Assembly (NCBI RefSeq): GCF_003334335.1
Contig: NZ_QOWQ01000097.1
DNA: 1,855 bases
Strand: one strand, 5' to 3'
Source of the DNA: Escherichia coli
GTDB lineage: Bacteria > Pseudomonadota > Gammaproteobacteria > Enterobacterales > Enterobacteriaceae
Under the pieces are notes generated by a model. That model saw only the letters and a program-made list of their open reading frames with translations. It was not told where the DNA came from and searched no databases. How positions within the stretch are numbered: position 1 is the first letter of the stretch; the number at the start of each line of letters is the position of its first letter. Positions 1-1,298 of this stretch are shown here, piece by piece. Position numbers and translations under genes: made by a program.

Positions 1-1298
1 CTTTTGCTCTGAGCTGCCGCCGTCGCACTGCCAGCTGCCTCTGTCGCCTTCGTGGATGCCGTCGTGGCGCTGCCCTTTGCTGCTGACGCCTGTCTGGTCG
101 CCTCATCTTTTGAAGCAGACGCAGATGATGCCGATGACGCCGCCGAACTGGCGGACGATGCGGCAGCCGTTTTTGAGGATTCTGCGCTGGTTTCCGACGC
201 TTTCGCGTTCGTCTCGGATGTCTTCGCTGCGGAAGCAGACCTCGCTGCTGCGCTGGCCTGTACAGCGGCTTCGCCAGCCTTCGTTGTGGCTGTTGAAGCA
301 GACGATGCAGCACTTTCTGCCGATTTTCCGGCGGCGGTGGCACTGGCTGAGGCCTGCCCGGCACTTGTTGACGCGGCACTGGCAGATAATGCAGCCGCTG
401 TTTTTGAGTCTGCCGCAGCTGAGGCGCTCTGTCCCGCTGCCGTTTCAGAAGACCTGGCGTTCGTCTCGGACGTTTTTGCCGCCTTCGCAGAATTTGCTGC
501 CGCCGTTGCCGAGGAAGCTGCGCTGCTGGCGCTCGAGGCTGCGTTCGTTTCTGATGATTTTGCCGCCTCTTTTGAAGCCGACGCATCCCGTGCTGAAGTG
601 GCTGCTTCTGACGCTTTCGTGGTCGCGGTGGATGCAGAAGTGGCTGCTGATTGTTGTGACGCTGCCGCATTCGTTTCTGACGTTTTCGCGGCACTGGCAC
701 TGGTAGCTGCCGCGCTTTTTGAGGACTCTGCAGCAGCAGCACTTTTCGATGCTTCACTGGCCTTTGTTGATGCCGCTCCTGCGCTGGAAGACGCTGACTG
801 AGCCGACGACGCGGCCTGTCCGGCTGACGTGCTGGCTGCGCGTGCTGAGCCTGCAGCATCAGTCGCATGGGTTGCCGCCTCACGGGCTGATGTGCGGGCA
901 TCGCTGGCTGACTTCTTCGCGGCTGCCGTGTTCTGTGCCACTGCGGACGCGTTACGCGCCACCTCTTCCACCATCAGTTCAAAACGGCGCAGTGCCTCTG
1001 GCCGGACATCATCCTCCGTCATTGCACCGAGGAAATCATTCAGTGTGCCCGGCTTTGAGTCCTCATATACGGTGATAATCCCGGCGTGTGACGGCGGGAA
1101 TCCCTCCACCAACAGACTGACGCTGTACTGACCATACTCGACGTCCATTGTATAACGCCCGGCTTCATCCGGATTTTCTGAGGCCACTGTGTTCACCACC
1201 ACCGTGGTGCTGTTGCGCCTGGCCTTTAGCTGAATGGTGCAGTTTTGTATCGGCTTACCTGCACCATCTTTCAGTACACCTGAAATCAGTACTGCCAT
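1..1298 (-). CDS. stf: Side tail fibre protein (lambda Stf-like), N-terminal 432 codons; C-terminal part lies beyond the window start (3' partial)
   Basis: Hand translation of the minus strand (codons on plus triplets starting at positions divisible by 3) gives ATG at 1298..1296 and no stop down to position 3. An in-frame stop lies upstream at 1340..1338 with no alternative start between. Protein begins MAVLISGVLKDGAGKPIQNCTIQLKARRNSTTVVVNTVASENPDEAGRYTMDVEYGQYSVSLLVEGFPPSHAGIITVYEDSKPGTLNDFLGAMTEDDVRPEALRRFELMVEEVARNASAVAQNTAAAKK..., then an Ala/Ser/Thr-rich repetitive tract ending ...TASTKATEAAGSATAAAQSK at the window edge. From memory this closely resembles the N-terminal attachment domain and repetitive shaft of phage lambda Stf (orf-401) and E. 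coli prophage Stf homologues. The 64-nt gap to lom and the lom-then-stf gene order match the lambda layout. Missing from the ORF track presumably because it has no stop in the window. Confidence 0.9.
   Translation of the reverse strand, partial: MAVLISGVLKDGAGKPIQNCTIQLKARRNSTTVVVNTVASENPDEAGRYTMDVEYGQYSVSLLVEGFPPSHAGIITVYEDSKPGTLNDFLGAMTEDDVRPEALRRFELMVEEVARNASAVAQNTAAAKKSASDARTSAREAATHATDAAGSARAASTSAGQAASSAQSASSSAGAASTKASEASKSAAAAESSKSAAATSASAAKTSETNAAASQQSAATSASTATTKASEAATSARDASASKEAAKSSETNAASSASSAASSATAAANSAKAAKTSETNARSSETAAGQSASAAADSKTAAALSASAASTSAGQASASATAAGKSAESAASSASTATTKAGEAAVQASAAARSASAAKTSETNAKASETSAESSKTAAASSASSAASSASSASASKDEATRQASAAKGSATTASTKATEAAGSATAAAQSK
3..950 (-). repeat. 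Low-complexity Ala/Ser/Thr-rich repetitive tract within stf (predicted fibrous shaft region)
   Basis: From about codon 115 to the window edge the translation is dominated by A, S and T with periodic K/E/Q. Recurring peptide motifs include AAK(T/S)SETNA (4 copies), SASTATTKA(S/G)EAA (2 copies), a related TASTKATEAA, and ASSASSAASSA (2 copies). Confidence 0.8.
204..692 (-). repeat. Four dispersed copies of a degenerate 27-nt repeat encoding the AAK(T/S)SETNA motif
   Basis: Plus-strand copies: 204-230 cgcgttcgtctcggatgtcttcgctgc; 456-482 ggcgttcgtctcggacgtttttgccgc; 540-566 tgcgttcgtttctgatgattttgccgc; 666-692 cgcattcgtttctgacgttttcgcggc. All are in the same codon phase of the stf frame. Identity is by eye only, not computed. 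Confidence 0.7.

Follow-up and report, generated by a model that had tools for sequence, protein, structure and literature searches.

The long Ala/Ser/Thr-rich tract of the stf product described here very probably forms the proximal rod in a side tail fiber of the lambda type (Stf), built as a long coiled coil of three parallel alpha-helices. The window (the whole 1,855-nt stretch of DNA analyzed) lies entirely within a lambdoid prophage of Escherichia coli. Its genes all run on the minus strand and comprise the 3' part of lom and the first 432 codons of stf, with a terminator-like hairpin between them; the full stf product has 991 amino acids (aa). The rod occupies positions 3–992 (minus strand; aa 103–432 in the window), as delimited by its heptads, its periodicity, and an AF2 model; it runs past the left edge of the window, and in the full gene reaches about aa 459. 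It consists of A-x-x-A-x-x-S heptads, and it is because of these that the protein has so extreme a composition and the DNA a 21-nt periodicity in phase with the codons.

The genetic setting is that of a lambda-type tail fiber gene. The 3' part of lom, for an outer-membrane beta-barrel of the Ail/Lom type, was taken from the list of open reading frames (ORFs) and occupies positions 1363–1855 (minus strand), with its 5' end outside the window; it matches PHROG 108, "Lom outer membrane protein" (E = 1.7e-86), and is annotated in the same way by RefSeq at a locus 99.9% identical to the window (L001), where the gene order is J-lom-stf-tfa (annotated as gpJ, Ail/Lom, stf, and tail fiber assembly protein). 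Between lom and stf, at 1306–1336 (minus strand), is a hairpin and T-run resembling an intrinsic terminator, with the stem AGCCCGCCGGTTCAGGCGGGCT followed by TTTTTGTGGG. The stem has 8 bp, seven of them G-C; one such site was found, vs. 0.1 expected in shuffled sequences, and it stops just a few bases before the stf ATG. A search of the window for RNA families (Rfam) yielded none.

The stf start codon is at 1296–1298 and, with the StfN collar domain (aa 1–91), makes up positions 1026–1298 (minus strand); the limits of this domain are borrowed from Yu et al. 2025 (PMC12617516). The N-terminus matches the Pfam family phage_tail_N (PF08400) over aa 1–134 (E = 1.3e-71), and aa 1–94 match the PDB entries 9e7m and 9mgh, "Tail fiber protein" (E = 1.6e-48), the first of which is the Ur-lambda Stf N-domain. 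A short linker follows at 993–1025 (minus strand), recognized by homology to residues 92–101 of Ur-lambda Stf; the AF2 helix begins at aa 96. Beyond the window, in L001, the distal part of Stf has three Phage_fiber_2 (PF03406) repeats at aa 462–590 and a Collar domain (PF07484), and aa 744–991 match the T4 gp37 tip (2xgf; E = 1.5e-81). No NCBIfam family matches the protein as a whole. With its collar domain, its gene position, and its Phage_fiber_2 and gp37-like tip modules, this is the gene for a lambda-type Stf. Ur-lambda Stf is known from cryo-EM to be a homotrimer, with four fibers per virion attached through a 12-mer collar; its trimer consists of a collar (residues 1–91), a linker (92–101), and a proximal coiled coil from residue 102 onward (PMC12617516). 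The collar domain here would dock the fiber on the tail, and the rod behind it would carry the distal receptor-binding part outward.

The Ala/Ser/Thr-rich part proper starts at nt 950 (aa 117), and nt 3–950 on the minus strand encode aa 117–432. Its 316 residues in the window include 123 Ala, 80 Ser, and 35 Thr, or 75% in all, in agreement with the first-pass annotation of these data, a model's reading of the DNA alone, which had described a shaft of more than 300 residues rich in these amino acids. That the tract has internal repeats beyond compositional bias is also borne out, by peaks of protein self-identity at each multiple of seven residues (z = 8–10 vs. 2000 residue shuffles); at a lag of nine residues there is no excess (z = -2.7). 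The heptads number 51 and run from aa 103 to aa 459 with no skip. Position a is Ala in 35 of them and position d in 47, while position g is Ser in 37; Pro is absent, and Gly is confined to the outward positions b, e, and f. Large hydrophobic residues occur at a and d only in the first three heptads (L103, F106, V110, V113, and V120) and at V456, with an Ala core elsewhere. The predicted rod would thus have Ala in both core positions and Ser at g across the 51 heptads. A canonical Leu/Ile/Val core was considered and rejected, large hydrophobics being missing from most a and d positions.

The AF2 monomer model consists of helix at aa 96–278 and 285–458 (mean pLDDT 80.6 over aa 96–458, with blocks mostly at 80–90). 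At aa 279–284 the model bends the helix into a hairpin, which is taken to be an artefact. The trimeric state and the coiled coil itself are suggested by homologues. Under the name PCoil, Ghosh et al. 2012 described the tract as a trimeric coiled coil with the same heptad, and a PCoil homologue is a helical trimeric rod by CD, SEC-MALLS, and EM (PMC3368898); in Ur-lambda Stf it is mapped as the proximal coiled coil (Yu et al. 2025), and the fiber is a rod by cryo-EM/ET (PMC12617516). Coiled coils do not typically have a core made entirely of Ala, and the stability of such a structure therefore rests on the published experiments with the homologue. By standard coiled-coil geometry (~0.148 nm per residue), a rod of 357 residues would be ~53 nm long.

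Global alignment to lambda orf-401 is collinear, with a single gap of exactly 105 aa (aa 304–408). The segment with no counterpart in lambda comprises 315 nt, or 15 heptads, at 75–389 (minus strand); the megablast match to lambda breaks off at it, and on the standard geometry it would add ~15.5 nm to the rod. Past the gap both proteins resume with TASTKATEAAGSA(T/V)..(A/S)QSK, the segment that the first-pass annotation had given for the end of the tract. Of 5426 complete E. coli genomes, 3660 (67%) carry the 315 nt, as do 21 phage records: the window has the form that prevails, and lambda has a shorter variant. The ~100-aa expansion postulated at first reading was right in size, and alignment bears out the difference in length within otherwise collinear proteins, but the idea of an expansion in this prophage has the direction reversed or, at the least, is not proven. 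Whether lambda has undergone a deletion or the common form an insertion is not proven, as no outgroup spans that part of the tract.

Natural variation in rod length was surveyed in 73 related loci from IMG/VR with the same distal junction, since nearly all of the N-domain proteins among the 120 of 411 matches listed are partial (113–214 aa) and so useless for tract length. These loci are close relatives with some shared ancestry, so that counts of events are approximate. The tract has 360 residues in 53 of the loci, 255 in 14, and 248 in two; lengths of 465, 346, 136, and 140 residues also occur. The variants among related prophages correspond to changes of +105, -14, -105 (at three different places), -112, -220, and -224 aa, and mosaic joints to other distal modules also fall inside the tract. 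In one locus (L011), 315 nt are duplicated in tandem, the copies being 98.7% identical. The variation in fiber length and the mosaicism anticipated in the first-pass annotation are thus real, and the natural variants lend support to its idea of recombination. Clean recent junctions have 0–8 nt of exact microhomology for deletions and 13 nt for one duplication. Homologies of this size point to short-homology or illegitimate events combined with selection, and not to classical unequal crossing-over between long repeats.

Of 12 indel events, 11 are in multiples of seven aa (binomial probability ~5e-9 against an expectation of 1/7, by our own estimate); PCoil length differences in multiples of seven were previously noted by Ghosh et al. 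2012 (PMC3368898). The sole exception is a 220-aa deletion (in L089) that breaks the heptad phase by three residues; either the phase rule is not absolute or this allele is defective. Among related prophages the rod is shortened by deletion and lengthened by duplication at short in-phase homologies (0–13 nt), and since nearly all surviving variants retain heptad phase, selection for an unbroken coiled coil would appear to filter the outcomes.

A narrower regularity is that four junction-distinct events are of exactly 315 nt: three deletions at distinct positions, with gaps after aa ~302 (the lambda type), after aa 186 (L027–29), and after aa ~211 (L047), and the tandem duplication in L011. Rod length could conceivably be quantized, with steps of 15 heptads (105 aa, ~15.5 nm, roughly one superhelical turn) selected through fiber geometry and no mutational hot spot involved, but this seems unlikely. 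In the window allele a patch of homology joins the motif AESSKSAAATSASAA (687–734, minus strand; aa 189–204) to a second copy, AADSKTAAALSASAA (372–419, minus strand; aa 294–309), at a lag of exactly 315 nt. The copies are identical at 31 of 45 nt, and at 33 of 45 in L045, where this is the top internal patch; in the window allele they share their last 13 nt, TGCCAGTGCCGCG. Junctions of the L027 deletion and of the L011 duplication, two of the four events, fall at this patch, and that of the L047 deletion is a few codons beyond its right end, so that a local hot spot accounts for much of the recurrence. Selection on geometry gains something from internal patches of equal quality at lags of 70, 77, 84, 154, and 182 aa, for which no matching indels were found among the 73 loci. 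On the other hand, the variants of 14, 112, 220, and 224 aa depart from the 15-heptad step; steps of 35 aa should be equivalent in a rod with threefold symmetry, and none is seen, which argues against a simple phase rule; and the pattern was spotted after the fact in a small sample.

At the DNA level, the first-pass annotation had described a highly repetitive sequence of degenerate 27-nt units, and an array of this kind, recently expanded by ~100 aa through slippage or unequal crossing-over, would be an alternative account of the tract. The motif AAKTSETNA (9 aa, or 27 nt) does recur three times; repeat spacings are all in codon phase, as claimed; the tract is longer than lambda's; and the L011 duplication is a recent tandem event. 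The actual period is 21 nt, however: autocorrelation is strong at that lag (z = +7.1 vs. codon shuffles) and below expectation at 27 nt (z = -2.2). Tandem Repeats Finder (TRF) reports no array of 21 or 27 nt, only a 25-nt scrap with a 9-nt period at 118–142; exact direct repeats reach 14 nt at most; and the 21-nt signal loses significance (z = 1.6) when synonymous codons are shuffled without changing the protein. The repeats therefore belong to the protein, as heptads, and not to the DNA; since synonymous codons are not shared between them, the periodicity of the DNA simply follows from the protein pattern.

Nor does the extra segment appear as a recognizable copy of its neighbors. Identity at a lag of 105 residues (0.397) is not above that at other heptad multiples, and the best collinear block (aa 180–270 vs. 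292–382; 54 of 91 identical) was equaled or beaten in 88 of 1000 heptad-order shuffles, so that an old copy of an adjoining block was rejected as not significant. With the long form also so widespread in E. coli, K-12 StfR included, the array with its recent local expansion is largely refuted and must be considered highly improbable. Two related proposals were discarded on the same data: a VNTR or contingency-type tandem-repeat locus, by the TRF, longest-repeat, and synonymous-shuffle results, and selection against DNA repeats by codon scrambling, by the finding that the same codon is used at repeat positions no less often than expected (z = +0.9 to +2.2).

Least credible of all is a low-complexity linker or spacer that is intrinsically disordered and periodic only by accident, which would suit the dominance of three small residues, the near-absence of large hydrophobics, and the lack of any Pfam or NCBIfam model over aa 135–461, but not the strict seven-residue register over 51 heptads with no Pro and only outward Gly, the preservation of that register by natural indels, the continuous helix predicted by AF2, or the rods observed for the homologous PCoil (PMC3368898) and, by cryo-ET, the Ur-lambda fiber (PMC12617516).

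An ORF of 249 codons runs antisense across the tract (52–801, plus strand; from the ORF list) and is the counterpart of lambda's annotated orf206b, to which it is 85% identical. It has its wobble positions in common with stf, and there are 215 synonymous changes in the stf frame and 198 in the antisense frame; because third codon positions coincide, conservation cannot separate the two frames. It is not considered a gene, but a shadow of the Ala and Ser codons.

Taken as a proximal coiled-coil rod, the tract is a real and ordinary finding of small discovery value: the long allele is standard in E. coli prophages, including Rac of K-12, and the domain, its heptad pattern, the trimeric coiled coil, and the multiples-of-seven rule were all published already. 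The one mildly new point is the independent recurrence of indels of exactly 15 heptads, which raises a small question about what sets fiber length; if selection and not a single hot spot were behind these steps, fiber geometry (reach, or the rotational phase from collar to hinge) would constrain fiber evolution. Annotators should treat the tract as a structured rod of ~53 nm and not as junk low-complexity sequence. For fiber engineering, rod length is evidently adjustable in whole heptads, and the natural junctions mark tolerated sites for the design of chimeric Stf proteins.

Among known systems, the PCoils of the collagen-like proteins EPclA-D of EHEC prophages likewise lie directly after a PfN (phage_tail_N) domain and have an Ala-X-X-Ala/Ser-X-X-Ser heptad with few Leu and Ile (PMC3368898). 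They are much shorter, with 88 and 116 residues tabulated and a coiled-coil prediction for residues 101–245 of EPclA/B, and lead into a collagen triple helix, where the Stf rod is followed by Phage_fiber_2 repeats (PMC3368898). Unlike them, the coiled coil encoded here makes a predicted rod of ~357 residues by itself.

Stf of lambda and Ur-lambda (P03764; orf-401 plus orf-314 in lambda PaPa) has the same gene position after J and lom, a collar domain ~87% identical, a heptad rod that is collinear and highly similar over aa 1–303 and from aa 409, and the same terminal junction (TASTKATEAAGSA..QSK..KRAEDIASAVALED..KGIVQLS). The differences are the 15 additional heptads here (aa 304–408) and, beyond the window, three Phage_fiber_2 repeats and an extra middle module. 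The Ur-lambda-type protein has 774 aa, vs. 991 for the full protein here; the shorter figure is from the products at L084, L085, and L087, in which the N-terminal query region is 98–100% identical to lambda's.

Alanine-zipper trimeric coiled coils, such as Ala-core variants of E. coli Lpp-56, are parallel trimers with Ala at a and d and are likened to the Stf rod by description; they are short and engineered or partial, where the Ala core of Stf extends over ~50 heptads. A further known system is StfR of the K-12 Rac prophage, with which are grouped the E. coli "prophage tail fiber N-terminal domain-containing proteins." The StfR tract has the same length (360 residues from FELMVEEV to KGIVQL), and its first 480 residues align without gaps, with 454 identities; the difference lies solely in the distal modules for receptor binding (1120 aa in total, vs. 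991), which is ordinary tail-fiber mosaicism.

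All genes in the window are on the minus strand. The 3′ part of lom, for an Ail/Lom outer-membrane protein (nt 1363-1855; PHROG 108, E = 1.7e-86), precedes stf, which starts at nt 1298 and stays open to the window's left edge (aa 1-432). A G+C-rich terminator-like hairpin with a T-run (nt 1306-1336, minus strand) separates the lom stop from the stf ATG and comes to within a few bases of the latter. With so strong a hairpin ahead of it, stf would need read-through (antiterminated late) transcription, and lom could be expressed separately. E. coli chromosomes match the window at 99.9% identity. 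The gene order in strain Ecol_AZ155 is L, C40 peptidase, tail assembly, gpJ, lom, stf (991 aa), and tail fibre assembly protein, and the prophage adjoins ompW remnants and yciE. In L001, a 99.9% identical locus with the full gene, remnants of DinI, a second tail fibre assembly gene, a DUF4376 gene, and a truncated ompW are found 3′ of the prophage tail genes (10915-11879), which places the prophage at or in ompW, beside yciE/yciF, with debris of an earlier element.

The full protein has a phage_tail_N domain (Pfam; aa 1-134), three Phage_fiber_2 repeats (aa 462-590), a Collar domain, and a C-terminal tip matching the T4 gp37 crystal structure 2xgf (E = 1.5e-81); its N-terminal 94 residues match PDB 9e7m/9mgh. 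The gene is a lambda-type side tail fibre gene. The best 120 of 411 protein matches to the N-domain are all 113-214 aa long, most labelled partial and many from short contigs, and E. coli genomes have a median of 2 and up to 14 stf places; draft assemblies may be interrupted within the N-domain region or just past it, perhaps owing to several stf paralogues.

The Ala/Ser/Thr-rich tract (nt 3-950, minus strand) encodes aa 117-432, 316 residues including 123 Ala, 80 Ser, and 35 Thr. The first-pass annotation described it as degenerate 27-nt DNA repeats in one codon phase, with an implied expansion of some 100 aa relative to lambda; the feature is real, but was partly mis-described. Its repetition does exceed what composition would give: protein self-identity is 0.41-0.46 at every multiple of seven residues (z = 8-10 against residue shuffles) and no higher than background at every other lag, nine residues included (z = -2.7). 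The period is 21 nt rather than 27 (z = 7.1 and -2.2, respectively, against codon shuffles). Spacings of repeat families are mostly multiples of 21 and always multiples of 3, so the codon phase holds; Tandem Repeats Finder detected no array in the tract. The pattern A-x-x-A-x-x-S is unbroken from L103 to about aa 459, or 51 heptads, with Ala at position a in 35 and at d in 47, and Ser at g in 37; proline is absent, and glycine occurs at b, e, and f only. Shuffling synonymous codons with the protein fixed reproduces the 21-nt signal (0.457 observed against 0.441 expected; z = 1.6). Exact direct repeats in the tract reach at most 14 nt, and recurrent 12-mers number only seven. What was described as "degenerate DNA repeats" is thus the imprint of a structural repeat in the protein, and these analyses of the tract gave no sign of recent internal duplication in the window allele.

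Lambda orf-401, the N-terminal Stf part in lambda PaPa, is collinear with the window protein apart from a single gap, exactly 105 residues long (aa 304-408; nt 75-389, minus strand), past which both read ...TASTKATEAAGSA..QSK..KRAEDIASAVALED..KGIVQLSSATNSTSE. The length difference and the shared end segment were thus correct, but the difference reflects lambda as a short variant of a common long allele, and an expansion here is not supported. Of 5426 complete E. coli genomes, 3660 have the 315-nt segment at ≥80% coverage, as do 21 phage records; K-12 StfR has a tract of exactly the same length (454/480 identical, gapless); and neither lag identity nor block-repeat shuffles reveal the segment as a recognisable copy of its neighbouring sequence. 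The shorter form, that of lambda, is in the minority. Outside the window, the Phage_fiber_2 repeats (L001 7941-8327) are three tandem 44-aa units, KGIVQLS..ATPKAVKAAY.., versus one before the PaPa frameshift in the orf-401 translation; the extra repeats are a second, independent source of added fibre length.

Tract length was measured in 120 related loci, 73 of them with the KGIVQL distal junction. Counted from FELMVEEV to KGIVQL, fifty-three of the 73 have the standard 360 aa, 14 have 255, and two have 248, with single loci at 465, 346, 136, and 140. Loci with an NYRNQ junction form a second class, whose tracts are 240, 233, and 121 aa long. Indels were mapped against each variant's closest full-length relative: 105-aa deletions after aa ~302-310 (lambda, L036, L044, L058, L090, L100), after aa 186 (L027-L029, flanks 98% identical), and after aa ~211 (L047); a 315-nt tandem duplication, copies 98.7% identical (L011); deletions of 14 (L067), 112 (L073, L101), 224 (L071), and 220 aa (L089; stf aa ~142-363); and deletions of 7, 14, and 98 aa in the NYRNQ class. 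Sizes are multiples of seven residues in 11 of 12 events, and clean deletion junctions have exact homology of only 0-8 nt, which together point to selection for an unbroken heptad register, besides in-phase motifs. L089, the sole out-of-phase variant found, lost 31 heptads plus three residues, shifting the register by three (a "stutter"). Two further loci (L018, L118) are pseudogenes: frameshifts inside the tract make everything after them Arg/Pro/Gln-rich nonsense, much as in lambda PaPa stf, though at other positions.

One point not found in the literature consulted on this tract is the recurrence of exactly 105 aa (15 heptads), four times with distinct junctions (L027-L029, L047, L011, L002; stf aa 186-310). 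Part of it is explained by a homology patch with copies at aa 189-204 (nt 687-734, minus strand; AESSKSAAATSASAA) and aa 294-309 (nt 372-419, minus strand; AADSKTAAALSASAA), at a lag of exactly 315 nt. The copies are identical at 31-33 of 45 nt, and in the window allele share their final 13 nt, TGCCAGTGCCGCG. In L045 the 315-nt-lag patch ranks first among internal patches. The junctions of L027 and L011 fall at this patch, and that of L047 a few codons past its right end. Patches at lags of 70, 77, 84, 154, and 182 aa are equally good, with no matching indels in the sample, and at the right breakpoint of the lambda-type junction no homology patch corresponds. The recurrence may reflect a hot spot combined with chance or, though this is unlikely, a preference for length steps of roughly one superhelical turn.

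In other loci, the switch to a different distal module falls within the tract or directly behind it, for example following AAKTSETNA (about aa 280, inside the rod) or AQNTA (about aa 125, just past the N-domain). The rod thus doubles as a mosaic joint at which host-range modules recombine. A shared N-domain and proximal rod are followed by four or more unrelated distal modules (L013, L015, L020, L026, L035, L068, L082, and others). The proposal that the tract yields fibre-length variants and mosaics is supported by variants and joints in relatives, but long degenerate DNA repeats as their substrate are not.

Antisense to the rod, a 249-codon ORF (nt 52-801, plus strand) shares 85% identity with the annotated "orf206b" of lambda. 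This ORF and stf have their third codon positions in common and, these wobble positions being shared, changes among alleles are "synonymous" about as often in one frame as in the other. The ORF looks like a shadow cast by the GCN/TCN-rich sense frame, held open by Ala/Ser codon composition. Rfam has no match in the window.

AF2, with an alignment of 44 alleles, predicts continuous helix at aa 96-278 and 285-458 (mean pLDDT 80.6); the modelled fold-back between them is a monomer artefact. With the standard coiled-coil rise of ~0.148 nm per residue, the rod would be ~53 nm long, ~15.5 nm more than lambda's. A low-complexity region following the PfN domain has been named "PCoil" and reported as a trimeric coiled coil, with the heptad Ala-X-X-Ala/Ser-X-X-Ser, no Leu or Ile, and length differences in multiples of seven (Ghosh et al., 2012, PMC3368898). 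The side fibres of Ur-lambda have since been resolved as four trimers per virion, each Stf having a StfN collar (1-91), a linker (92-101), and a proximal coiled coil from 102, beyond which lie a hinge and a distal domain (Yu et al., 2025, PMC12617516). In the full protein here, the heptads begin at L103 and the helix stops at ~aa 458, in keeping with this architecture: the tract is the proximal trimeric coiled coil (PCoil) of Stf, its nature already known.
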